This document shows positions 3,311-15,884 of a stretch of DNA of 20,000 nucleotides, piece by piece. Source of the stretch: an uncultured virus (IMG/VR IMGVR_UViG_2927661242_000003) (Duplodnaviria; Heunggongvirae; Uroviricota; Caudoviricetes); the IMG/VR virus record IMGVR_UViG_2927661242_000003; one strand, 5' to 3'. Numbering within the stretch: the stretch's first letter is position 1; the number at the start of each line of letters is the position of its first letter. Position numbers and translations under genes: made by a program. Below the pieces are notes generated by a model. The model did not search any database and was not told the origin of the DNA. It saw nothing but the letters and a program-made list of their open reading frames with translations.

Positions 3311-3642
3311 CGCGCCATCCCCCTGGAAATCGAACCCGACACAAAAAACGCCATACCCAACACAAACCCAACACAAATAAATCCCTTTAAAATCAATATC
3401 TTTATCAACTTTGAGTTAGGTGTGTTGGGTGTGTTGGGTTTATCGGTCCTCGCATGAGAAGGAATTCCAGCGCCACGTTCACCAACAAAGAACGTCACGC
3501 ATGCGCGCATGCGAAGCAAAACCCAACACACCCAACACACAGCCCGCAAACCCGCGAAATTGAAGGGCAAAACCTGTGTTGGGTTTGCAATATCGACCCG
3601 ACACACAACCAACACACCCGACACACATTCAGACGCAGTCAT
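3307..3642 (-). CDS. Possible 111-aa ORF spanning the iteron array
   Basis: Open frame with ATGA overlaps at both ends (3639-3642 with the primase stop, 3307-3310 with the regulator start) and AAGGGG upstream. The protein sequence is dictated by the repeats. Confidence 0.35.
   Translation of the reverse strand: MTASECVSGVLVVCRVDIANPTQVLPFNFAGLRAVCWVCWVLLRMRACVTFFVGERGAGIPSHARTDKPNTPNTPNSKLIKILILKGFICVGFVLGMAFFVSGSISRGMAR
3334..3625. repeat. Iteron array, probable phage replication origin
   Basis: ACCCRACACA starts at 3334, 3355, 3366, 3521, 3530, 3596, 3607 (1 mismatch) and 3616. Inverted copies (TGTGTTGGGT) start at 3421, 3430 and 3575. AT-rich tract at 3376-3418 and a perfect palindrome CGCATGCGCGCATGCG at 3498-3513. 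Lies immediately downstream of the primase-helicase. Confidence 0.85.
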
Positions 3643-6335
3643 GTTGCTGGCCCCTTTACATGGTCCCAGTTGTCCACGTTCCAGCCCGCCAACCGCGCCT
3701 TGGCCCGCCAGTTCTCCACCTGCTTGCCCAGCTCGGCCGCTTTCATTGATGGGGGTGGGGAAGCATTCGGATCGACAGGAAAGAAGAACGCACCAAACCG
3801 CCGGTTGTTGCCATCGGTCCAGGGGATTGCCCGCGTCTTATCCACCTCGGAACTGATGAACAGCGAGAACTTGGTCTGGCTCATCACATGTTCCTTGTTG
3901 CGCTGACACCACTCAAGGAACAGCGAATAGAGGTCTGTGGACAGGCACGGCCCCCAAAGGCCGTGCCCCAGCTCGCTGTACTTCCATAGGTGCAGGAAGG
4001 TTTGCCAGCCGGCCCGACTCAAGGCCACCAGGCGCTCCCGGGCCTCAGTTGACGGTGGTCGCGTGCGTTGGTTGAAGTCGCCCAAGTCAATCGACAGAAG
4101 CCAGCCATACAGCGCGGCAACGCCGCCCTGCTCAAGCTCGCGCCCGATTGCCTTCTGCCGCTCCACCGGCAGGGTTTCCATGGGCCACATGACCAGCATC
4201 CGGCGGTCGCTCTCGCTGATCGGCCAGGGCAAGATCTCGTTGCTCAGGAACACCGCGTTCATGTGGTTGGCTTCTTCCCAGCCGTTGATGAACTTGGATT
4301 CCATCCGGACGGTCTTGCCGGTGATCAGGTGCTTGATCTTGCCCACCTGGTTGTACCGCTGATCACGGCTCACCACCTCTTCAAACACCGCCCACAGCTT
4401 GCGGCTCTGCCAAGCGTTGAAGTTGCTTTCCAGCTGGGTCTGCCCCACGGTCGCTGCGTACTGTCCGTAAAGCATGCCCAGGGCATCGGCGAACAGCAGG
4501 CTTTTGCCCGACCCTTCCATGATCGAATGCATCAACACGGCGGTGTCCATCTTGGCGCCCAGGTGCTGTAGCGGGTACGCCAACCAGCGTGTCAGCCACT
4601 GGGCCGCCGCTTCGTCGTGGTTGCACAGAAACGAGATCAGCCAACGCAAGTTGGCACAGGCGGCATCATCCCTGACGGGCTCCAGCGGCAGGCCATCAAA
4701 GGTGTTGATGTACACCGCCGGGTCCTTGGTCATGGTCGGGTCGAACACGATGTGCTCAACGTCCACCGTGCGCCGCTCGCTGCTGTTCAGCCACAGTGGA
4801 TAGGTATCGCCAAGGGCCATCTTTACCGCGCCCTCGGCTATGCGCCGTTTTTTCTCCCGGTCCCAGACATCCTTGGTCCCGTCGATGTACACATAGCGGT
4901 CAGTCGGCGACATGCCGAAGGCATCACCCTTCTTACCGGCCATGCGCCGCGCCTGCTCGATGTCGCTGACATGATCGGCGGAGATAAGCCGCTTCGCGGT
5001 GTTGTCCAGCCACTCCTTGGCGATAGGCTTGCTCACTCGCGCTTCAAATGCCGACTTCTTCATCGCCCGCGCTTGGTCGCAGTCCCACACATGCGTGGTG
5101 CCCTCGATCAGAGCAAACCGCCGCAGCACTTGATCGACCGTCAACGCCTCCCCCGCGCCCCCCATAGGAGCCGGAGCGGCCTCGCTGGCTGCGATGTCGC
5201 CACCCTGGCTCGGCCCGCTCATGTCATCAGAAGGGGGCGGGGGAAGGTCCCGGGGATCTGGGCGTGACGAATGCTGCATGCCGAGCATGCGCGCCGCCTC
5301 TTTCACCGCCCGAGACTGGTCGCCGTTGTGTTCCAGCAGGCAATAGACCTCAAACGCATCATTCTGGTGACCGTTGGCAAGCGGATCAGCGCCGTGGTGC
5401 GAGTACACTTTATGATCCTTGACCGTGATGCCCGGCATGCCGGTACTGCTTTGTGCGTACAGCCACTTGCTGCCGCGCTTGATGTAGCCGTGGGCCCGCA
5501 GCAGCTCCTCGACGTCGTGACAGCGGTTGAATTCATCAATCACCGAGGGCTTGTCGCCTTTGGGCGCCGGGCGCTTGAGCGCTTTGCCCGGGTCCTTCTT
5601 AGGCTTCGGCGCCCACGGGCAGGCCGCCTCGGCATCCCGCTTGAAGATGTCCCAGTTGTTCCAGATCGAAAGCAGCTCACCCGGCAGCACCGGCAGCCCT
5701 TCGGCCGCATTGGGCGCTTTCCGCCAGAAATAAGGCTTACCCGTGCCGGGATGAATCGACGGGGGCAACACGTCCTGCACCAGGCCGGCGCGCAGCTCCA
5801 GCACCGTGAAGCGCTGATACAGTTGCGCCTCGGCCTTCGCGGCGGCCTCCCCGGCCAAATCTCCGGATGCCTTGGCCGCCCTGGCCTGGGCCGTCAATCG
5901 CTTGTAGATCGACCCGTCCGGGTCATTTTCATTCGGCCACGAAAGCGAATGTCGGGTCAGCCCAACGCCATCCGGTACCTGGAACATCACCCGGAAGCGC
6001 GCCGGGTTACCGACCACAGTCGGAAACACCAGCGCCATTGCATCCAGGTCGATGCCTAACAGGTCGTAAAGTACGTGGCGGGTCCATTGCACATCATCGA
6101 CATCGAGCGAGCAGGCCCGACTTGGGCCCAGGACTACGCCGAGATTGTGCGCAGGATTCTTCTGCCAGAACGCATCGGCTTTGGCAGCGTCTGTGAAGTA
6201 GCCGCCGGGCTTGTTCCACCCCAGGCCCTTGGGGCCTTTCTCTCCGGGCTCGATGGGTACCAGGGACAGACCGAAGTCTTCGATGTAGCGCCGCGCCCAC
6301 TCGGCGGTGGGCGCTCCATTGGCCTGATCAATCAT
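3639..6335 (-). CDS. Bifunctional primase/polymerase (Prim-Pol) fused to an SF3/DUF5906-type helicase
   Basis: N-terminal LVPIEPGEKGP...NLGVVLG...SLDVDD...ELRAG..QDVLPPSIHP (AEP Prim-Pol motifs). C-terminal EGSGKS, VFEEV and FLSN helicase motifs. Start placed at the ATGA overlap with the upstream gene; 898 aa. Confidence 0.9.
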   Translation of the reverse strand: MIDQANGAPTAEWARRYIEDFGLSLVPIEPGEKGPKGLGWNKPGGYFTDAAKADAFWQKNPAHNLGVVLGPSRACSLDVDDVQWTRHVLYDLLGIDLDAMALVFPTVVGNPARFRVMFQVPDGVGLTRHSLSWPNENDPDGSIYKRLTAQARAAKASGDLAGEAAAKAEAQLYQRFTVLELRAGLVQDVLPPSIHPGTGKPYFWRKAPNAAEGLPVLPGELLSIWNNWDIFKRDAEAACPWAPKPKKDPGKALKRPAPKGDKPSVIDEFNRCHDVEELLRAHGYIKRGSKWLYAQSSTGMPGITVKDHKVYSHHGADPLANGHQNDAFEVYCLLEHNGDQSRAVKEAARMLGMQHSSRPDPRDLPPPPSDDMSGPSQGGDIAASEAAPAPMGGAGEALTVDQVLRRFALIEGTTHVWDCDQARAMKKSAFEARVSKPIAKEWLDNTAKRLISADHVSDIEQARRMAGKKGDAFGMSPTDRYVYIDGTKDVWDREKKRRIAEGAVKMALGDTYPLWLNSSERRTVDVEHIVFDPTMTKDPAVYINTFDGLPLEPVRDDAACANLRWLISFLCNHDEAAAQWLTRWLAYPLQHLGAKMDTAVLMHSIMEGSGKSLLFADALGMLYGQYAATVGQTQLESNFNAWQSRKLWAVFEEVVSRDQRYNQVGKIKHLITGKTVRMESKFINGWEEANHMNAVFLSNEILPWPISESDRRMLVMWPMETLPVERQKAIGRELEQGGVAALYGWLLSIDLGDFNQRTRPPSTEARERLVALSRAGWQTFLHLWKYSELGHGLWGPCLSTDLYSLFLEWCQRNKEHVMSQTKFSLFISSEVDKTRAIPWTDGNNRRFGAFFFPVDPNASPPPSMKAAELGKQVENWRAKARLAGWNVDNWDHVKGPAT

Positions 6336-6538
6336 CCGTTCCGCTCCCGCCACCCCTGACAAAGAATGCAGGTTTCGCACCCTTCAATCGCCTGCTGGCG
6401 GAGCAGCGGAATCGGTTCGCCGCAGTCCTCGCAGAACTGGGCACTGACCCGGTTCGACGGAAACACTCGATTGCGGTGGATGGCAACGTCCAACAGATAC
6501 TGTGCCTGATCATTTGCCCGGTCGATGTCATCAGCCAT
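6332..6538 (-). CDS. TraR/DksA C4-type zinc finger protein (PtrB-like)
   Basis: MADDIDRA...CEDCGEPIPLLRQQAIEGCETCILCQ carries the DxxDxA and C4 zinc finger signature. Confidence 0.92.
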   Translation of the reverse strand: MADDIDRANDQAQYLLDVAIHRNRVFPSNRVSAQFCEDCGEPIPLLRQQAIEGCETCILCQGWRERNG

Positions 6539-7019
6539 GGTCGTGCCCTTCCATAGCTGCGCGGGCACCTGCCATGATCCCGAGTACAGCTCGGATCACA
6601 TCGACGCCATGTTTATCCAGGGTCGCCACTTCGTGCGGCTCCCAGATGCTGTCAGCTGCCCCGGCGTGCATGCTCGAAACGAACTCACCGGTTTCCGCGA
6701 GCAACTTGCCGACGGCCTTAAGCGCATCACCTGTAGCAGGCACCGGAACTGGCTTGTACCAAACCACCCCTGCCGGACGCATCAGCGCATCGAGCAAAAG
6801 CGGGTACTGAGTGAGCCTGATGACCTCTTCAAGGTCATCAGGGGTCAGCCAGCGGCGTTCCTCATTGAATTTCAGCTTCTTCTGCAGCTCGTCGTACTCC
6901 ATGACCATGTCATGGGCCAGCGAGGTGATTCCGCCGTGATAGTCGCGCCCGGCACGATAAAGTGCCTCACGCAGAGAAAGGACCGGACCCGCGTCCGGCA
7001 ACAGATCTGTGCGACTCAT
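6531..7019 (-). CDS. Phage regulatory CII-family protein
   Basis: 162 aa from ATG 7019 with an HTH-like GGITSLAHDMVMEYDELQKKL...LTPDDLEEV segment and a C-terminal EFV...AADSIWEPHE typical of 186/CP76-type CII. Lies downstream of cro. Confidence 0.75.
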   Translation of the reverse strand: MSRTDLLPDAGPVLSLREALYRAGRDYHGGITSLAHDMVMEYDELQKKLKFNEERRWLTPDDLEEVIRLTQYPLLLDALMRPAGVVWYKPVPVPATGDALKAVGKLLAETGEFVSSMHAGAADSIWEPHEVATLDKHGVDVIRAVLGIMAGARAAMEGHDHG

Positions 7020-7020
7020 A

Positions 7021-7073
7021 ACCGTAAATGCCCCTGTTACGGTGTAGCCAGACGTTAGGGCGCGCCCTATCAT
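7021..7073 (+). promoter_or_regulatory. Candidate establishment (pE/pRE-like) promoter with upstream inverted repeat
   Basis: ACCGTAA-N9-TTACGGT (7021-7043) lies next to TAGCCA(7045-50)-N17-TATCAT(7068-73). It points toward cI, antisense to cro, with a predicted start near 7080. Confidence 0.5.
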
Positions 7074-7084
7074 CCAACCCACGA

Positions 7085-7336
7085 CCGGTGTGCTGTGCGA
7101 ATCGTGCTGTGCAGCACGGCTCATCGTTCCAGTCGATCCGGGGAATTCTTGTGGTGAGAGGCCCCGGACCGACGCCTATGCGGCGACTTGCATGTACCTC
7201 GTGTAAGTCGCTGCAGCCGGCCTGGTGTTTCTTTGGTGAGAGGTTCCAGGCCGGTGTTTCAAGTGGCGGCATGTATGTGCTGGTGCTGCCACCGCTGGAC
7301 CGGGGGATTCTTGTGGTGAGAGGCCCCGGACCAGCA
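7085..7336. ncRNA. Structured multi-hairpin array (putative regulatory RNA; functional strand unresolved)
   Basis: Hairpins at about 7085-7119, 7132-7173, 7179-7215, 7217-7254, 7263-7292 and 7294-7335. TGGTGAGAGG occurs at 7152, 7234 and 7314 (period 80-82 nt). A 26-bp exact repeat spans 7145-7170 and 7307-7332. Confidence 0.6.
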
Positions 7337-7340
7337 CCCT

Positions 7341-7571
7341 TTATGCCGCAGCCCTTGAGCCGCGCAAGTACGCCCAATCAATATCCGGGCGAAGCTCCTC
7401 ACAGGTGACTGCGCCCTGTGTCTCTCGCTCTATGTTCACAGCAAGACCACCATTTGCTCGCCGATTGCGATAGGCGACCTGCTTAAGCTGACCCGCCGTG
7501 GTCTGGCAACGACTGGCCAAGCTATCCAACTCTGCTTTCTCGAGACCTTTTATGTATGAATGCAAGCTCAT
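7341..7571 (-). CDS. cro: Cro/YdaS-like transcriptional regulator
   Basis: 76 aa with an HTH and ...IERETQGAVTCEELRPDIDWAYLR (YdaS/Cro signature). GGAGG RBS; divergent from the S24 repressor. Confidence 0.9.
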   Translation of the reverse strand: MSLHSYIKGLEKAELDSLASRCQTTAGQLKQVAYRNRRANGGLAVNIERETQGAVTCEELRPDIDWAYLRGSRAAA

Positions 7572-7591
7572 AGGCACCTCCGTTTCGCAAA

Positions 7592-7632
7592 AGACTAGCA
7601 GCCGCTAACGGCATTAACAATAGCTGCGCGCA
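7592..7632 (-). promoter_or_regulatory. pR-like promoter and operators
   Basis: Minus strand TTGTTA-N17-TAGTCT. Operator TAGC-N4-GCTA at 7596-7607 and a half-degenerate copy at 7621-7632. Same architecture as 8383-8423. Confidence 0.75.
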
Positions 7633-7633
7633 A

Positions 7634-7667
7634 TTTACAAAACGCTAAACGAAATTAAGATGCTTGG
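7634..7667 (+). promoter_or_regulatory. pRM-like promoter predicted to give a leaderless cI mRNA
   Basis: TTTACA(7634-39)-N16-TAAGAT(7656-61), with the ATG 6 nt downstream and no Shine-Dalgarno. Confidence 0.55.
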
Positions 7668-8318
7668 ATGAATATCAGCCAGCTACGAATTGACGCTCTG
7701 CGAAAGCTTATTGGCGACCTGAAAACCAAAGAGTTTGCAGACCGCTATAACCTCGACGCGTCCTACATCTCCCAGCTTTTGAATGGTCATCGCCCATTGG
7801 GTGATAAAGCAGCCAAAAATCTTGAAGAAAAGATTGGCCTGCCTGGTGGAACACTCTTGATGCCCGCGCACTCAGCCCAGGACGGCATGGCGCTTGGCAT
7901 TGAGCCAGGTCCTAATTTAACGACACGTTTCCGGCGGGCGCCCATTCAAGGACAAGCCCAAGTGAAACCGGACGGATCGTGGGATGAGCTGACACCAACG
8001 GGTGGCTGGATCGATGTACCTACTTCGGACCCAAGTGTTTACTCAGTGCGCATCAAGGGCGATGCGCTGGCACCAGCCATCAGAAATGGTTGGATTGTGT
8101 GGTGCGAGCCCCGCCACGTCTTAGTACCTGGCGAATACGTGCTGGTATCAAAGACTAGCGGCGAGCAAATGATTAAGGAGTTGCTGTATTCGAATGACGA
8201 AGAAGTCAGCCTAATGTCAGTTAACGACACCTATGGGAGGGTCACCATCCCACGAACGGAGATCGAAAAAATCCACTATGTCGGAGGCATCATGCCACCG
8301 AGCCAGATTCAAGCCTGA
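7668..8318 (+). CDS. cI: CI-like repressor, HTH plus S24 peptidase
   Basis: N-terminal HTH (KEFADRYNLDASYISQLLNG...LGDKAAKNLE) and C-terminal S24-like domain (YSVRIKGDALAP...MIKEL). GDAL stands in place of the canonical GDSM. Confidence 0.9.
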   Translation: MNISQLRIDALRKLIGDLKTKEFADRYNLDASYISQLLNGHRPLGDKAAKNLEEKIGLPGGTLLMPAHSAQDGMALGIEPGPNLTTRFRRAPIQGQAQVKPDGSWDELTPTGGWIDVPTSDPSVYSVRIKGDALAPAIRNGWIVWCEPRHVLVPGEYVLVSKTSGEQMIKELLYSNDEEVSLMSVNDTYGRVTIPRTEIEKIHYVGGIMPPSQIQA

Positions 8319-8337
8319 TCAAAGATCAGCAAACAAG

Positions 8338-8363
8338 AAACCGCTCTCAGAGCGGTTTTTTTT
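8338..8363 (+). terminator. Intrinsic terminator after cI
   Basis: AAACCGCTC-TCA-GAGCGGTTT followed by a T run. Confidence 0.85.
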
Positions 8364-8382
8364 GCATTACGTAAAAATAATA

Positions 8383-8423
8383 TAGCCACAGCTATTGTTA
8401 ATTCTGTTAGCCGTTGCTAACTT
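8383..8423 (+). promoter_or_regulatory. pL-like promoter with two operators
   Basis: TAGC-N4-GCTA at 8383-8394 and 8408-8419; TTGTTA(8395-8400)-N17-TAACTT(8418-23). Confidence 0.78.
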
Positions 8424-8456
8424 TGCCTCGTACACCTCTCACCAAGAGTACGAGAT

Positions 8457-8642
8457 ATGCAAACCACTACACAGCACAGACTCGCCCGCTGCCCGGTGTA
8501 CCTCCACCCAGCAGCCTGCACCAGCCCCGAAGCCATCGACAAGATCCAGCGCCAGACCGGCCTGCTGGTGATCGCCACAACCCGCCGCACTGCCGCCGCC
8601 AAACCGGTAGACCTCGGCCCGTTCGGGGGTGACGCAGCATGA
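8457..8642 (+). CDS. Small hypothetical phage protein (first early gene)
   Basis: 61 aa; ATGA overlap with the next gene; start preceded by a motif hairpin. Confidence 0.7.
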   Translation: MQTTTQHRLARCPVYLHPAACTSPEAIDKIQRQTGLLVIATTRRTAAAKPVDLGPFGGDAA

Positions 8643-9500: not shown

Positions 9501-9880
9501 AGACCAACTACTTCAACGCCTACACCCAAGCCCTCGGCGCCCTGGCCCTGATCCCGATCTACCTGACCAGCCCCGGCACTGTGAGCAAGGCCACCCTGAT
9601 TGGCACCGCCAACGAGGCCACGCTGGCCCTGGCGAGCATGCCCGCCTGTGCGGTCGAGTTGGCGGAGGTTTATCGGTGCGTCAGCAGCGTGATCCAACCC
9701 GGCCAGATTGCCTACGTCACCCCGACCAATGTCCCCGAGACGCCCTTCGGGGCCGTCGTGGCGGATGAGCGCGGCCTGATCTGCGCCGCCGCCCGAGGCG
9801 CCAGCAAAGAGGGGCTGGCGGAACTGATCCGCCTCAAGCTGCAGCCCGCCGAAGTGGGGGCCGGGGAGGCAAGCACATGA
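9497..9880 (+). CDS. Hypothetical phage protein
   Basis: 127 aa with ATGA overlaps at both ends. Confidence 0.75.
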   Translation: MKTNYFNAYTQALGALALIPIYLTSPGTVSKATLIGTANEATLALASMPACAVELAEVYRCVSSVIQPGQIAYVTPTNVPETPFGAVVADERGLICAAARGASKEGLAELIRLKLQPAEVGAGEAST

Positions 9881-10119
9881 GCGACACCCTCGACCAACTG
9901 AGGCGCCAGTTCGCCACGCCCTGCCCCACCCTGGCAGCGGTGCGGGAGCAGTATTTCGCGCACATCCGCACTGACCGGCATCTGCTCAGCGAAATCAAAA
10001 AGGGCCGGGTGAAGCTGATCGTGACGCGCCTTCACGGGTCTGCACGCGCCAAACCCGTGGTTTATCTGCACAACCTGGCCGCCTACCTCGACGCCCAAGC
10101 GGAGAAAGCGGCGGCCTGA
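9877..10119 (+). CDS. Pyocin activator PrtN-family protein
   Basis: 80 aa; LAAVREQYFAHI...IKKGRVKLIVTRL...VYLHNLAAYLDAQ matches the PrtN family pattern. Confidence 0.8.
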   Translation: MSDTLDQLRRQFATPCPTLAAVREQYFAHIRTDRHLLSEIKKGRVKLIVTRLHGSARAKPVVYLHNLAAYLDAQAEKAAA

Positions 10120-10169
10120 CAACGGTGGCCCCTGCCGTCCAGGGGCGAACATCCAGTGAGACACAGCAC

Positions 10170-10520
10170 ATGAAACCAACCGACACCGCCGAATTCATCG
10201 GCGAACTCAACGCCGGAGTCTTCGCCAGCCAGATCGGCCACGCGCTTTCAGAAGTCGCAGCAGGCGTGGTCGACCACGGCAAGGTCGGCACCGTGACCAT
10301 CACCTTCACCTTGAGCCAGATCGCATCCAGCCATCAGGTAACCGTCAACCACAAGCTGGCCTACAAGGTGCCAACCAAGCGCGGCAGCCGCAGCGAGGAC
10401 ACCACCCTCGACACGCCGATGCATGTCAACGAAGGCGGGCGCCTGACCCTGTTCGCCGAGGCCCCAGGCCCTGGGCAGTTGTTCGACCGGAACGACGCAC
10501 CGATTCACGCCAAGTCCTAA
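10170..10520 (+). CDS. YfdP-like phage protein
   Basis: MKPTDTAEFIGELNAGVF...KLAYKVPTKRGSRSEDTTLDTPMHVNEGGRLTLF; sits directly upstream of DUF2303, as is usual for this pair. Confidence 0.75.
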   Translation: MKPTDTAEFIGELNAGVFASQIGHALSEVAAGVVDHGKVGTVTITFTLSQIASSHQVTVNHKLAYKVPTKRGSRSEDTTLDTPMHVNEGGRLTLFAEAPGPGQLFDRNDAPIHAKS

Positions 10521-10561
10521 ACCACCCTGCTCCAAACCTCTCACCACAAGGAACAGATCCA

Positions 10562-11374
10562 ATGGAAGCCAAAGCAATTCAACTGCTCCAAGACACCGCC
10601 ATCCTGGCCCACGCCAAGCGCCTGGACACGCACACCCCAACCCTGGTGCTGCCGTCCGACCAGAAGATACACAGCATCGAAAAGTTCCAGCCTCTGCGCA
10701 GCCGCTTCCGCGGTGAGCTGGTCACCCACTCGCTGCACGACTTCGGCAACTACGTGCAACACCACAGCTCCGAAGCTGCAGCCGCCGGTTTCGTTGACGC
10801 CGAACAGATGCGCTGCACCGTGTACTTCAATCTGGGTGACATTACAGCCCCCGGTCACGGCGACTTCACCGCAACGCTGAACCTGCGCAAGACCGCCGGG
10901 TTTCAGGCCCTGGAACGCGCCGCCAGCACGACGTTCCAGCAGAAAGACCTGAGCGACTGGATCGAAGACTGGGCCCCTAACCTGGCCTCCCTAGCCGCCG
11001 ACGACTCCCCCATCGACTTGCGCAAAGCAGCGAGCGCCATTCGCTCGATCAGCATCGAGCAGGCCCGCAAGAGTGAGCACGTCGTGGGCGACCTGAGCGC
11101 ATCGCGCTCCGCCATGGACCAGATCGAGGCCAAGTCGTCCGAAGGGCTGCCCGCCGAATTCCGCTTCACCGTCGAGCCCTACGAAGGGCTCACTGCGAGA
11201 ACCATCCGCTTGCGTGTGGCGGTACTGACCGGCGGCGACAAGCCACTGCTCAAGCTGCGCTGGATCGGCGAGGAACAACTGCGCGAAGACCTGGCCCAGG
11301 AATTTAAGGAAGTCGTCCAGGCCGATGTGGGCACCGCCGCAACGCTGACCATCGGCAGCTTCAAGCTGGCGTAA
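10562..11374 (+). CDS. DUF2303 / YfdQ family protein
   Basis: 270 aa, RSRFRG...FNLG...PGHGD...QKDLSDWIEDW...SRSAMDQIEAKS...PYEGL...IGSF. Confidence 0.88.
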   Translation: MEAKAIQLLQDTAILAHAKRLDTHTPTLVLPSDQKIHSIEKFQPLRSRFRGELVTHSLHDFGNYVQHHSSEAAAAGFVDAEQMRCTVYFNLGDITAPGHGDFTATLNLRKTAGFQALERAASTTFQQKDLSDWIEDWAPNLASLAADDSPIDLRKAASAIRSISIEQARKSEHVVGDLSASRSAMDQIEAKSSEGLPAEFRFTVEPYEGLTARTIRLRVAVLTGGDKPLLKLRWIGEEQLREDLAQEFKEVVQADVGTAATLTIGSFKLA

Positions 11375-11451
11375 CCACCTGCAACACCCCGCCGCCGTCC
11401 TCTCACCACGATACATATCCGGCGGCGGGGCTCTAACGAGGATCACAGCAC

Positions 11452-12069
11452 ATGCAAACTCAACACCTGATCATCATCGCCATAGGCCAACTGCTTGGAC
11501 TGGCCGTACTGGCCTACTTCATCCGCCGCGCGTTCCTACGCGCCTTGGCACGCGCCACAGCAGACGACCGCGACCGGATCTATGCACTGAACAACGATCT
11601 GGCCCGAACTGTCGAGGCCCGCGAGGAACTGAAAAAGCAACTCGCCGACCACAACACCCGCCAGCGCCAGCTCAAGGCGCAGCCCTTCACCCTGGAAGAC
11701 CACCAGACCCTAATCAGCATCGCCCAGGCCCTCGGCCTTGCTGCCTCGACCTACAAGGCAATCCCAGGGACCGCCCCCGTCCAGGCCAAAGCAGACGCCC
11801 TGGCCGCACAAGCCCGCACCCTGGCCTATCGAGTCTTCCACACCGTCACCGCGGCTACCGCGCACAACGGCGAATCGCTAGACACCCAGCTCATTGAATG
11901 GCTCAACGCCCACGGTGACCTCTGGGGCAGCCTTGAGAACAGCACCATCACCTTCCCGCATGAGGCAGACACCGAGGGCTATCCGCATGTACGCGAAGCA
12001 CTGAGGGAAGCCTATGAGCTGCACCAGCAGCGCGAAGCCCGCGAGCTGGGCCAGGAGGACGCGGCATGA
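11452..12069 (+). CDS. Hypothetical protein with N-terminal membrane anchor and coiled coil
   Basis: 205 aa; residues ~6-24 are hydrophobic and followed by a heptad-rich region; GAGGA RBS; ATGA overlap with the MTase gene. Confidence 0.75.
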   Translation: MQTQHLIIIAIGQLLGLAVLAYFIRRAFLRALARATADDRDRIYALNNDLARTVEAREELKKQLADHNTRQRQLKAQPFTLEDHQTLISIAQALGLAASTYKAIPGTAPVQAKADALAAQARTLAYRVFHTVTAATAHNGESLDTQLIEWLNAHGDLWGSLENSTITFPHEADTEGYPHVREALREAYELHQQREARELGQEDAA

Positions 12070-14030
12070 CCTCCCTGAAAGCGCCTCCTTTCAACTTCAA
12101 GACCCAATATTCCCTCGGGCTCAACGCTCAAGACGATGAGATCGTCGTTGATTTCTTCTGCGGTGGTGGGGGTGCCGGAACCGGCCTGGAGATGGGCCTG
12201 GGCCGCGCTGTGAACGTCGCGAAGAACCACAGCCCTGCAGCGATCAGCATGCACACCGTGAATCACCCAGGCGCCGTGCACTACACCACCGACGTGTTCG
12301 ACGGTGATCCGGACACCGAATGCGGCGGCAAGGCCGTAGGCTGGTTCCACATGTCGCCGGACTGCACACACCACAGTCAGGCCGCTGGTGGCCAGCCACG
12401 CAAGCGCGAGATCCGAAACCTTTCGTGGATCGGTTTGAAATGGGCCGGCAAGAAGAAACCCCGGGTAATCAGCCTAGAGAACGTGAGGCAGATCCTGCAG
12501 TGGGGCCCTCTCGTTGCCAAGCGTGACAAAGCCACTGGGCGGGTAGTGAAACTCGGTGGCAGTGTGGCTGCCCCTGGTGAGGTTGTGCCGGTCCACCACC
12601 AATTCCTGGTGCCAGATCCAGCCCGGCGCGGGCAAACCTGGGCCGTGTTCGTCGCCGAGCTGCAACGCCTTGGCTATGCCGTCGAGTGGCGCGTGATCAA
12701 GGCGTGCGACTTCGGTGCGCCGACAAGTCGGGAACGCCTGTTCATGATCGCCCGCTGCGACGGCCAGCCCATCGTGTGGCCAGAGCCAACCCATGCCAAG
12801 AACCCAGCAAAAAGCCAGAAGAAGTGGCGCACTGCTGCCGAGTGCATTGACTGGACGATCCCAAGCAAAAGCATCTTCGACCGGCCCAAGCCTCTGGCAC
12901 CAGCCACCCTGCGGCGAATCGCCAAGGGCATGAAGAAATTCGTCCTCGATGCCGCTGACCCGTTCATCGTGCCGATTGCGAACTGGTCCGGCGATAGCGT
13001 GCAATCAGCCCATGAGCCGCTACGGACCGTGACGTCCTGGCCCCGCGGCGGATCATTCGCCATCGCCAGCCCGATCATCGCGCCAGCAACGCACCAGGGC
13101 AGCGATCGCATCAACGACCCGTCCGCCCCGCTGCCGACTGTGACCTGCGCGAATCGCGGCGAGCTGACGTTGATCAGTCCGGTGATGGTCACTGCTGCGC
13201 ATGGCGAAGGGAAGCCTGGCGGTGTTCAACGCTGGGGCAACGGCAGCAAGTTTGCCGGTGCCCCGCTGGGGACGGTGACAGCCAGCGGCGGGCATTCAGT
13301 TGCAGCCGCTCACCTGGTGAAGTTCCGGTTCTCGGACGACGGCAAAGCGCTGGATGAACCGCTGCCGACCATCACCAGCGGCGGCAACTACCAGCGCCCG
13401 GCCGGCGCCGCACACGCCATGGGTATCTCAACGGTGTTCATGGCCCAGATGAATGGCGGCTTCAACACCACGGACGCCAAGAGCATCGAGGACCCGATGA
13501 CCACGGTGACAAACACCGGCAGTCAGCAACAGCTGGTGACGGCAAACCTGCTGCACCTGCGCGGCAACTGTGACGCGAAGGATTGCGCCGAACCGCTACA
13601 CACTGTCAGCGCAGCCGGCACCCATCACGGCCTGGTCGAGTACACCCTATCGCCTGAGCACGAAGAGGGCGCCCTGCGGGTCGCCGCATTCCTGATCAGC
13701 TACTACGGCGCCGAGAACGTGAGCGCTGCAAACGAGCCGGCCCCAACGATTACCACCAGGGACCGCCTTGGCCTGGTAACCGTCACCATCAAGGGCACCC
13801 CCTATGTGATAGTCGATATCTGCCTGCGGATGCTGCAGCCCTCCGAGCTGTACAAGGCCCAGGGCTTCCCCGCCGACTACATCATCAGCCACGGCGCCGA
13901 CGGCAAACTGTTCACCAAGACCCAACAGGTGCACATGTGCGGCAACAGCGTCAGCCCACCGCCGATGGCTGCCCTCGCACGCGCAAATGACCCTTGGCGC
14001 CAAACCGAGCAGCTCAAGGAGGCCGCATGA
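12066..14030 (+). CDS. DNA (cytosine-5) methyltransferase, phage orphan type
   Basis: Motif I DFFCGGGG, IV SPDC, VI LENV, VIII TSRERLF, IX RML...ELYKAQGFP and X GNSV; 654 aa. Confidence 0.93.
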   Translation: MTSLKAPPFNFKTQYSLGLNAQDDEIVVDFFCGGGGAGTGLEMGLGRAVNVAKNHSPAAISMHTVNHPGAVHYTTDVFDGDPDTECGGKAVGWFHMSPDCTHHSQAAGGQPRKREIRNLSWIGLKWAGKKKPRVISLENVRQILQWGPLVAKRDKATGRVVKLGGSVAAPGEVVPVHHQFLVPDPARRGQTWAVFVAELQRLGYAVEWRVIKACDFGAPTSRERLFMIARCDGQPIVWPEPTHAKNPAKSQKKWRTAAECIDWTIPSKSIFDRPKPLAPATLRRIAKGMKKFVLDAADPFIVPIANWSGDSVQSAHEPLRTVTSWPRGGSFAIASPIIAPATHQGSDRINDPSAPLPTVTCANRGELTLISPVMVTAAHGEGKPGGVQRWGNGSKFAGAPLGTVTASGGHSVAAAHLVKFRFSDDGKALDEPLPTITSGGNYQRPAGAAHAMGISTVFMAQMNGGFNTTDAKSIEDPMTTVTNTGSQQQLVTANLLHLRGNCDAKDCAEPLHTVSAAGTHHGLVEYTLSPEHEEGALRVAAFLISYYGAENVSAANEPAPTITTRDRLGLVTVTIKGTPYVIVDICLRMLQPSELYKAQGFPADYIISHGADGKLFTKTQQVHMCGNSVSPPPMAALARANDPWRQTEQLKEAA

Positions 14031-14476: not shown

Positions 14477-14670
14477 GCCTGCCACGCTGGGTGATGATCT
14501 GCCGAGCTGCCGAACTCACCGGGTACAGCGAAGACGCCATACGCCACAAGGTAAAGAACGGCACCTGGGCCCAAGGCCGAATTTGGCGCAAGACACCTGA
14601 CGGCCGTATCGCAATCAACATGACGGAGTATGACAAGTGGGCCGAGAGCGCACCCCAAGAAGCGGCCTAG
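14473..14670 (+). CDS. xis: Excisionase
   Basis: 65 aa, MSLPRWVMICRAAELTGYSEDAIRHKVKNGTWAQGRIWRKTPDGRIAIN; overlaps the int start. Confidence 0.88.
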   Translation: MSLPRWVMICRAAELTGYSEDAIRHKVKNGTWAQGRIWRKTPDGRIAINMTEYDKWAESAPQEAA

Positions 14671-15884
14671 TGGCAGAACTGGCAAAGCACAAGGGCATTG
14701 AGATACACGGCGGCAATTTGCGCGTCGTGTTCATGTGGCGGCGGATACGCTGCCGTGAGTCCTTGGGCTTGCCCATCACCAAGGCCAACATCAAACACGC
14801 CGCCCTTCTAAGGGCGGCAATTATTCATGAGATCAAAACCGGCCACTTTGATTACGGCCGGCACTTTCCAAACTCGAAGCACGCCACCCACTACAGCAAC
14901 GCCAGAGACGAACGCCTCAGTGCACTCCTTGAGCGATATAAGCCGCTCAAGGCTGTTGATATCACTCCGGAAACCGAAGAGAAGTACGGTTATGCACTTG
15001 ATATATGCACTCACCTGGTGGGCAAGGATCGCCTTGCCGGCACATTGCTGCCTGAAGATATCCAACTGCTCAGGACCCTACTGATCGCAGAGCGGGCACC
15101 ATCGACCGCTAACCATTACCTCGCCACCTTCGCCGGCTTCCTGGGTTGGTGCGAAAGTAATGGATACTGCCGAGAGGGGCTGGCGGCCGCGTGCATTCGC
15201 TTTGCCATGCAAGATCGAGAGCCCGACCCACTGACACAAACCGAGTTCGGCTTGCTCATAACGAAGGGCTGCCTTCATCGTCAGGACTCAGCCGCCGTAA
15301 CTCTGGCTGTGTATACCGGCCTACGCCCCGGCGAGCTATGCGGCCTGGCTGTAGAAGACATAGATCTAGATCAGGGCCAAATAAGGATAACCAGGGCCAT
15401 CACCGCACGAGGTACATTCAAACTGCCCAAGACCGGGAAGCCCCGTACAGTGATGCTGATGCCTCCGGCAATCGAGGCATGCAAGGTGTTAATGGACTTG
15501 GTCAGGGGTGACAAACCGGAGAAGATCAACATCTACCACAACCGGCACGAAAGCCGCACCGTAGACGCAACACCGTTGCTTTCTCCAGCCACCCAGGCGC
15601 GCAAGAAAGTGATCAACAAGTGGTTCGTTCCAACAGCCTGGAATACCAAGTGGGCGGCCATACAGCATCGAGCGCAAATCAGGCCTCGCCGTCCCTACCA
15701 AACCCGACACACTTACGCATGCTGGTGCCTGACTGCACGTGGGAACCTGGCGTTCATCGCAAAACAGATGGGCCACAAAGACTTCACCATGCTGGTCGAG
15801 GTCTATGCCAAGTGGATGGATGATGAATCTCCAAACGAACTTTCAAGAATTTGGAAAGCCTTATTAGCCAGCCGCACTACATAA
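14637..15884 (+). CDS. int: Tyrosine integrase with N-terminal arm-binding (DUF3596-like) domain
   Basis: GIEIHGGNLRVVF...RCRESL; YTGLRPGELCGL; PKT; RPYQTRHTYA; IAKQMGH...VYAKW. GTG start at 14637 or 14670. Confidence 0.95.
   Translation: MGRERTPRSGLVAELAKHKGIEIHGGNLRVVFMWRRIRCRESLGLPITKANIKHAALLRAAIIHEIKTGHFDYGRHFPNSKHATHYSNARDERLSALLERYKPLKAVDITPETEEKYGYALDICTHLVGKDRLAGTLLPEDIQLLRTLLIAERAPSTANHYLATFAGFLGWCESNGYCREGLAAACIRFAMQDREPDPLTQTEFGLLITKGCLHRQDSAAVTLAVYTGLRPGELCGLAVEDIDLDQGQIRITRAITARGTFKLPKTGKPRTVMLMPPAIEACKVLMDLVRGDKPEKINIYHNRHESRTVDATPLLSPATQARKKVINKWFVPTAWNTKWAAIQHRAQIRPRRPYQTRHTYACWCLTARGNLAFIAKQMGHKDFTMLVEVYAKWMDDESPNELSRIWKALLASRTT

Follow-up and report, generated by a model that had tools for sequence, protein, structure and literature searches.

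The spacer between the cro-like and cII-like genes of this phage is filled by six hairpins (7086-7335) and is probably the gene for a discrete, structured + strand small RNA, which would have its own promoter and silence early-left genes by seed pairing. An abundant RNA is produced from the array, and the motifs displayed by the hairpins change among related phages together with matching sites at early-left gene starts; the proposed small RNA is so far undescribed. The RNA would extend from ~7080/7081 to ~7340-7344, a length of ~260 nt, antisense to the pR transcript, with a sigma-70-type promoter of its own driving it and the last hairpin serving as its terminator. It would be modular, with a 5′ module that shows seed 2 (GUGCUGUG) and one to three hairpins (three here) that show seed 1 (GGUGAGAGG) at their tips. 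These seeds would pair with accessible CCUCUCACCA and CACAGCAC(AUG) sequences located at or beside ribosome-binding sites, affecting the starts at 8457, 10170, 10562 and 11452, and pairing would either block translation or expose the mRNA to decay. In cis, full complementarity to the pR transcript between cro and cII could furthermore trigger cleavage of that transcript.

The hairpin array and its genomic setting

The window, meaning the entire 20,000-nt stretch of DNA that was analysed, is the early region of a temperate phage of the Pseudomonas type. Its - strand carries a Prim-Pol/DUF5906 replication gene encoding a primase-helicase (3639-6380), a cII-like activator gene of the CP76 family (6531-7019) and a cro-like gene (7341-7577), with the array beginning within ~6 nt of the cro stop codon. 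A cI-like repressor gene with HTH and S24 peptidase domains (7668-8318, +) is followed by a two-way terminator (8338-8365), after which the + strand early-left operon begins and extends to the integrase gene (14637-15884). Several features of this region were noted along the way. The 13-mer AGCTATTGTTAAT at 8390-8402 is found again, reverse-complemented, at 7613-7625, adjoining TTAGC-N4-GCTAA-like palindromes (also 8407-8420), and these copies are likely to be shared operators of the right and left promoters; in the relatives, the hairpin of the left leader comes after such a palindrome and a TAATTT-like -10. A promoter-like TTTACA-16-TAAGAT (7634-7676 region) ends at 7661, 7 nt before the cI ATG (7668), and the cI RNA contig in RNA-seq run X19 begins at 7676, so the repressor mRNA may be leaderless, as for lambda pRM. 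The left operon also encodes a PrtN-like pyocin-activator homologue (9877-10119) and a 654-aa cytosine-5 DNA methylase (12066-14030). Its first gene (8457-8642) specifies a conserved protein, 56-68 aa long in L004-L083, with the pattern MQTTQH...C..LHP...GP(F/W)GGDAA (phrog_13491), and the stop codon of this ORF overlaps the start of a dNMP-kinase gene.

Repeat searches and folds together resolved the array into its six hairpins. The 5′ module (7081-7131, +), defined by motif search and fold, contains two copies of seed 2, GTGCTGTG, at 7090-7097 and 7104-7111, the second of which lies in a 15-nt loop in the predicted fold of 7081-7131. It is followed by a hairpin with seed 1, TGGTGAGAGG (7132-7173, seed at 7152-7161), by a hairpin that lacks seed 1, has the loop GCATGTACCTCGTG and has arms that are 86% complementary (7179-7215), and by a hairpin with the seed 1 variant TTTGGTGAGAGGT, whose core is at 7234-7243 (7217-7254). 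The fifth hairpin (7263-7292) has the loop GTATGTGCTGG, a variant of seed 2, and the last (7294-7344), the proposed terminator, carries seed 1 at 7314-7323 and is followed by ACCC and then TTTAT (7340-7344). Inverted repeats were found at 7132-7173, 7179-7215 and 7217-7254, while the hairpins at 7263-7292 and 7294-7335 came from the folds. The three seed 1 copies form a 33-nt repeat, each copy at the tip of an inverted repeat, and their spacings of 82 and 80 nt confirm the period of about 81 nt that a preliminary description of this DNA had given for the hairpins at 7152, 7234 and 7314.

Folding favoured the + strand of the array (-161.6 kcal/mol, z -6.4) over the - strand (-134.7 kcal/mol, z -3.7). 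When the arms were paired by hand, two G-T pairs on the + strand were found in the 7179-7215 stem and one in the 7263-7292 stem, and one position of the 7132-7173 stem favoured the - strand; this agrees with the strand asymmetry that had been described earlier for the same three stems. Translation of the array itself was considered and rejected. An ORF at 7028-7408(+) is also open in 71 of 89 relatives, but its ATG at 7028 precedes the predicted RNA start, the strand is A-poor, and array lengths within a single architecture differ by non-multiples of 3. On the - strand, the cII frame can be extended in this window to an ATG at 7124, for an ORF of 197 aa; in relatives with two hairpins, the same conserved GAACGATGA(A/G)CC opens an ORF of only 8 codons, possibly a small upstream ORF in the array region of the pR transcript.

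To place the array among its relatives, loci were gathered with the CII protein, giving 80 from IMG/VR and 53 from species genomes. The species-genome loci were nearly all from Pseudomonas, with Azotobacter, Aquipseudomonas, Metapseudomonas and one MAG labelled Enterobacterales also present; some loci were missed by the hairpin and anchor scripts, and these anchor failures bear on the promoter, alignment and 112-locus counts. The spacers of the relatives held one to three hairpins (four once) with very different stems and the same loop motif, and a small hairpin with the same motif in sense orientation almost always precedes the first gene of their left operon. In an alignment of 22 one-hairpin relatives, 97.3% of cells were paired and both sides had changed in 7 of 17 pairs, a level that none of 500 shuffles attained, and slid controls gave at most 50% paired. 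Read as + strand RNA, this one-hairpin family contains 16 G-U cells versus 2 A-C cells, including a C-G / U-G / U-A series. Similarly, among 52 thinned relatives the fold energy was lower on the strand of the array RNA in 51 and the z-score in 38 (mean -5.2 vs -3.8; 15 shuffles each).

The hairpins could instead work on the sense strand. Both motifs occur in the sense orientation of their own operon: of 112 distinct loci, 93 have CTCTCACC sense-oriented in the spacer, none has it reversed there, and one has it reversed in the left region. The same sense motifs placed in two diverging operons are necessarily complementary to each other, so complementarity alone decides nothing about strand. The main rival to a + strand small RNA is a set of sense-strand cis elements, hairpins in the pR and pL transcripts that would bind a phage protein or RNA polymerase (in nut- or put-like antitermination, or for a translational repressor), the one-strand complementarity being a mere by-product of the diverging operons. 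We regard this as rather unlikely as the explanation of the array, though it is compatible with a small RNA and the two need not be mutually exclusive. The orientation counts fit it equally well, and it is also favoured by the up to three G-U pairs found in sense orientation in the cII-proximal hairpin of the two-hairpin family. Across all families (797 pairs, 79 distinct hairpins), wobble positions gave no strand signal, with 37 A-C favouring the + strand and 30 G-U favouring sense. Against these elements stand a conserved promoter and T-rich tails on the opposite strand and an abundant discrete RNA from a place where cro has no contig. Taken together, five lines (promoter, T-rich tail, fold energy, G-U pairs of the one-hairpin family and the RNA contig) favour a + strand RNA.

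Predicted promoter, 3′ end and RNA-seq contigs

A promoter scan of 6900-8600 returned three promoter-like sites, among them a candidate sigma-70-like promoter on the + strand at 7045-7073, TAGCCA-17-TATCAT, with its -35 at 7045-7050 and its -10 at 7068-7073, from which the RNA start is predicted at ~7080-7081. This corresponds to the candidate with a start near 7080 in the preliminary description, and it is now joined by conservation: of 97 distinct relatives, 93 carry the pattern T[AG]G[CT]C[AG]-N17-TAnnnT in the corresponding position and 92 have the 17-nt spacer, the sequence of which varies. Read on the opposite strand, the array is preceded by the 3′ end of cro, which is not conserved among the relatives. 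Two neighbouring sequence features were also seen. The promoter spacer holds a small GC-rich palindrome, AGGGCGCGCCCT (7054-7067), the arms of which co-vary in relatives; L007, for instance, has AGGTACGACCT. Immediately 5′ of the cII ATG lies a conserved inverted repeat, ACCGTAA-N9-TTACGGT (7021-7043), with a purine-rich ribosome site in its loop, and nearly all relatives keep the stem while the loop varies; this repeat abuts the -35 of the proposed RNA promoter, so that it may serve as an RNA hairpin, as a protein site or as both at once.

The 3′ end of the proposed RNA was examined by counting T residues after the 3′-most + strand hairpin. At least 4 T per 6-nt window were present in 61 of 106 distinct relatives (mean 3.7), the other 45 having 3 or fewer, compared with a mean of 2.1 after internal hairpins and a mean of 1.25 for tails in the sense direction, none of which (0 of 108) had 4 or more. 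In this window, the hairpin at 7294-7344 fails the terminator rule of the scan.

RNA-seq contigs bear on both ends. In run X19, a 243-nt contig covers 7097-7339 at a depth of 7095.5, and the cI contig (7676-8313) has a depth of 13.4, contig depth being a poor measure of expression. The contig begins 16 nt past the predicted RNA start and stops immediately short of TTTAT (7340-7344), which is where termination behind the last hairpin would put its end. X19 has no contig over 7349-7653 (cro) or 6800-7043 (the 5′ part of cII), and such holes are weak evidence; the uncovered flanks nevertheless argue against carry-over of DNA. An array contig in a run that lacks cro and cII contigs suggests an abundant, discrete array RNA that is made apparently without pR activity. 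The contigs do not give the strand, and the raw-read run X24 yielded no mapped reads; from the promoter, tails and folds we infer the + strand. Because the RNA is apparently abundant where cro and cII have no contig, a role in the lysogen is probable, where it would add to the CI repressor a second layer of early-gene silencing, one based on RNA.

The same data bear on the initial idea that the array forms the leader of an establishment transcript which CII activates, as for lambda pRE or 186 pE, and which runs through cro into cI. Indeed, the promoter is located a short way upstream of where cII begins and is directed towards cro and cI, the conserved inverted repeat at 7021-7043 adjoins its -35, and in X13 and X14 a single contig (~6768-8431) links the array to cI, although the figures of these two runs are identical and may represent one data set filed twice. 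However, the X19 contig stops at 7339, before cro, with no depth on either flank, the promoter has usable -35 and -10 hexamers, and T-rich tails follow the last hairpin. We therefore consider a CII-induced leader quite unlikely. The other part of the earlier proposal, a plus-strand array RNA with loops complementary to early-left starts, has in turn been strengthened by the promoter, the T-rich tail, the contig at 7097-7339 and the co-variation described below; silencing in trans would be the presumed effect of this RNA.

Matches at early-left gene starts and their co-variation

Both seeds of the proposed RNA have exact complements in the early-left operon. TGGTGAGAGG is found on the + strand at 7152, 7234 and 7314 and on the - strand at 8435, 10537 and 11399, where the + strand accordingly reads CCTCTCACCA; allowing up to 1 mismatch, the window contains 7 matches versus 1.48 expected, and 7 were reached in none of 200 shuffles. 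Similarly, GTGCTGTG has + strand copies at 7090 and 7104, with complementary copies at 8470, 10162, 11444 and 2666, giving 6 matches in the window versus 1.25 expected, a number likewise reached in none of 200 shuffles. The exact complements to seed 1 are 10-14 nt long (8434-8445, 10537-10550 and 11399-11409), and the best fits differ by hairpin. The middle hairpin (7217-7254) is complementary over 12 nt to 8434-8445, and the outer two, at 7148-7161 and 7310-7323, are complementary over 14 of 14 nt to 10537-10550, the match to which the preliminary description had drawn attention among the early-left starts. Prediction of duplexes between the whole RNA and the start regions produced unrealistically long duplexes, and background windows scored equally (mean -61.5).

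Four candidate targets on the + strand follow from these matches. The first (8427-8478) consists of a leader hairpin (8427-8454, z -3.16) with CCTCTCACCA at 8435-8444, the ATG at 8457 and, inside the 61-aa ORF 8457-8642, CACAGCAC at 8470-8477. In the second (10162-10172), CACAGCAC lies directly 5′ of the ATG at 10170 (gene 10170-10520, phrog_204). The third (10535-10564) holds AACCTCTCACCACAAGG, which overlaps the AAGGAA ribosome site of the ATG at 10562 (DUF2303 gene), with complementarity exact over 14 nt. In the fourth (11387-11454), a hairpin (11387-11430, z -3.66) displays CCTCTCACCAC in a 22-nt loop and is followed in order by GAGG, CACAGCAC (11444-11451) and the ATG at 11452. Among the relatives, the left operons contain 104 copies of CACAGCAC on the sense strand versus 3 on the other strand; an ATG comes directly after 27 of the sense copies, and 71 lie within 24 nt after an ATG. 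One further match was seen outside these motifs: CACGAGGTACAT in the integrase gene (15406-15417) is an exact 12-nt complement of the non-motif hairpin loop at 7192-7203, and with ~0.3 chance matches of this type estimated it may mean nothing.

The bipartite order of a hairpin and then CACAGCAC is the same in the spacer and in the left operon, as sense-strand sites would also have it. Such hairpin-plus-linear-motif units on opposite strands, adjoining a replication gene cluster, might alternatively be read as a DNA-level element, in which the adjacent primase-helicase (Prim-Pol/DUF5906, 3639-6380) would use the hairpins as origin or priming signals, much as the RSF1010 ssi sites and the P4 iterons are used. 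We find this reading highly improbable, as it sits poorly with an abundant RNA from the array, with G-U intermediates in the stems and with further copies that coincide with ribosome sites and start codons far into the left operon.

The check on the proposed pairing that had been suggested at the outset, co-variation of loops and targets across phages, was positive, in that both seeds change together with their targets. For example, CTCTCACC is present in the gap of 93 of 112 loci and then in the left operon of 80, and when the gap lacks it (19 loci) it is found in the left operon of 3. CTCTGACC occurs in the gap of 9 loci, of which 6 have it in the left region, as compared to 1 of the 103 loci with no CTCTGACC in the gap. 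Rarer variants likewise appear in both places of the same phage, namely CTCTTACC (L070) and CCCTCACC (L080, L102, L112), and L079 has the unrelated motif CCTTCCAC(AG) in spacer and left operon alike. Most phages have C at position 5 of the loop motif; L062, L063, L071, L075, L081 and L083 have G and L070 has U, and in each G or U phage this class agrees between the spacer hairpins and the left-operon leader. YUNR is a motif known from antisense systems, and by analogy the target loops may hold a YUNR-like CU[N]A whose N is the variable position. Seed 2 behaves in the same way: L120, L124 and L126 carry CACAACAC in the gap and GGAG-CACAACAC-ATG at the left-operon gene, and L115 and L123 have CACAGCAC at the same left-operon start and, in the gap, CACAGCAC beside a second copy that reads CACAACAC.

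An unbiased search for the longest words common to both regions again returned variants of the loop motif; by hand count, 34 of the 53 genome loci had such a variant 5-16 nt upstream of an ATG. In a permutation test, the longest R-L common run was 11.53 versus 9.75 (0 of 2000 permutations), an effect that is small within the main class (11.96 vs 11.50) and is confounded by relatedness. Since related phages are not independent samples, all of these co-variation counts overstate the number of events. Differences between R and L showed no bias towards changes that are wobble-compatible for an sRNA and its target (124 vs 116).

Co-variation in several classes also weighs against other uses of the RNA. 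The array could act as a multi-hairpin decoy for a protein, in the style of CsrB or RsmZ, or in cis only on pR, the matches at left starts being functionless, and its repeated identical loops and very high apparent abundance would suit such a role. We judge it very unlikely, because neither role predicts that seeds and left-operon sites change together, and the array loops read UUCUUGUGGUGAGAGG or UUUCUUUGGUGAGAGG, with the GGA of a CsrB- or RsmZ-like decoy absent. As for sense-strand protein sites, two unrelated motifs that both co-vary are less simply explained by a single protein. The 61-aa protein encoded at the first pL position (MQTTQH...GPFGGDAA, phrog_13491) matches no Pfam family, and its sequence hardly differs between L070 (U class) and L071 (G class), so that it probably does not set the loop class.

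Relation to known phage RNAs and to lysogeny control

No Rfam covariance model matched 7040-7360 at E values up to 10, and none matched within the array in a scan of 6500-8500; the preliminary description had likewise recognised no named RNA family in the motif. As proposed, the array RNA would work like the c4 RNA of P1 and the CI RNA of P4 and is not a member of the C4 family (RF01695). P1/P7 c4, P4 CI and N15 CA are small stable phage RNAs in which short loops pair beside the ribosome-binding sites of early or antirepressor genes; their loop and target differences define specificity classes, and they are present in the lysogen beside a protein repressor. Like them, the array has loops complementary to sequences beside ribosome-binding sites, with CACAGCAC directly before the ATGs at 10170 and 11452. 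C4 RNA, however, is cut out of the same transcript that carries its targets, whereas the array RNA is predicted to have its own promoter, is encoded opposite to pR and would find its trans targets on the divergent operon. The array RNA also differs from C4 in having 1-3 repeated seed hairpins and a second seed, with at least four targets.

Passages of a 2025 review (PMC12197685) mention c4 RNA, treat the function of lambda OOP RNA, list P22 sar in a table and give PAK_P4as15 as their only Pseudomonas phage RNA. The array RNA resembles OOP as a short RNA with its own promoter and terminator that runs against the pR operon beside cII and could promote cleavage of the pR transcript. OOP reaches over the cII 3′ end and is not known to have trans targets in pL; the array RNA would lie upstream of the cII start (~7080-7344 versus 7019) with no coding overlap, and its seeds match left-operon starts. 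The antisense RNA sar of phage P22 prevents an early regulator from being translated; it is cis-encoded opposite a single target, unlike the short seeds of the array, which match several unlinked targets. A literature search at the title and abstract level found no description of the array RNA, and a text search for the motif strings returned only unrelated primer matches.

The closest parallel for sense-strand sites is provided by the lambda nut and HK022 put elements. Lambda has nutR in its cro-cII interval and nutL where the pL transcript begins, and hairpins of the same orientation occupy the mirroring positions in both early transcripts here. The boxA sequence of a lambda-type nut site is CGCTCTTA, for which the window contains 7 matches with up to 1 mismatch versus 11.3 expected, none of them near the hairpins. 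Unlike nut and put, this system shows no boxA beside its hairpins, and no N-like protein was recognised; it has copies deep in the operon at ribosome sites, a separate abundant RNA and a conserved promoter on the opposite strand at the array.

To our knowledge, accounts of lysis-lysogeny control in Pseudomonas temperate phages are almost wholly protein-based, and an abundant multi-seed RNA would bring an RNA layer to this switch. The element occurs in prophages of 53 species genomes, mostly Pseudomonas, and both plant-associated and clinical lineages are represented. At least five loop classes were found, together with two classes of the second seed. It is possible, and we propose it tentatively, that seeds and targets form interchangeable RNA immunity classes, in which a resident RNA silences the early-left operon of its own phage and of incoming phages of the same class, whatever their CI specificity. 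If so, multi-hairpin arrays would widen the range of genes and phages covered, and there would be a programmable, RNA-based system of exclusion and lysogeny control throughout Pseudomonas temperate phages. The array RNA could also account for patterns of cross-immunity that CI specificity leaves unexplained. The natural seed and target classes amount to ready-made compensatory mutations, so the pairing model of the small RNA is directly testable, and the seed classes could serve as orthogonal RNA-target pairs. A further architecture is seen in two IMG/VR loci, L081 and L083, where at least four CTCTGACC hairpins are distributed along a longer stretch, upstream of a region that is organised differently.
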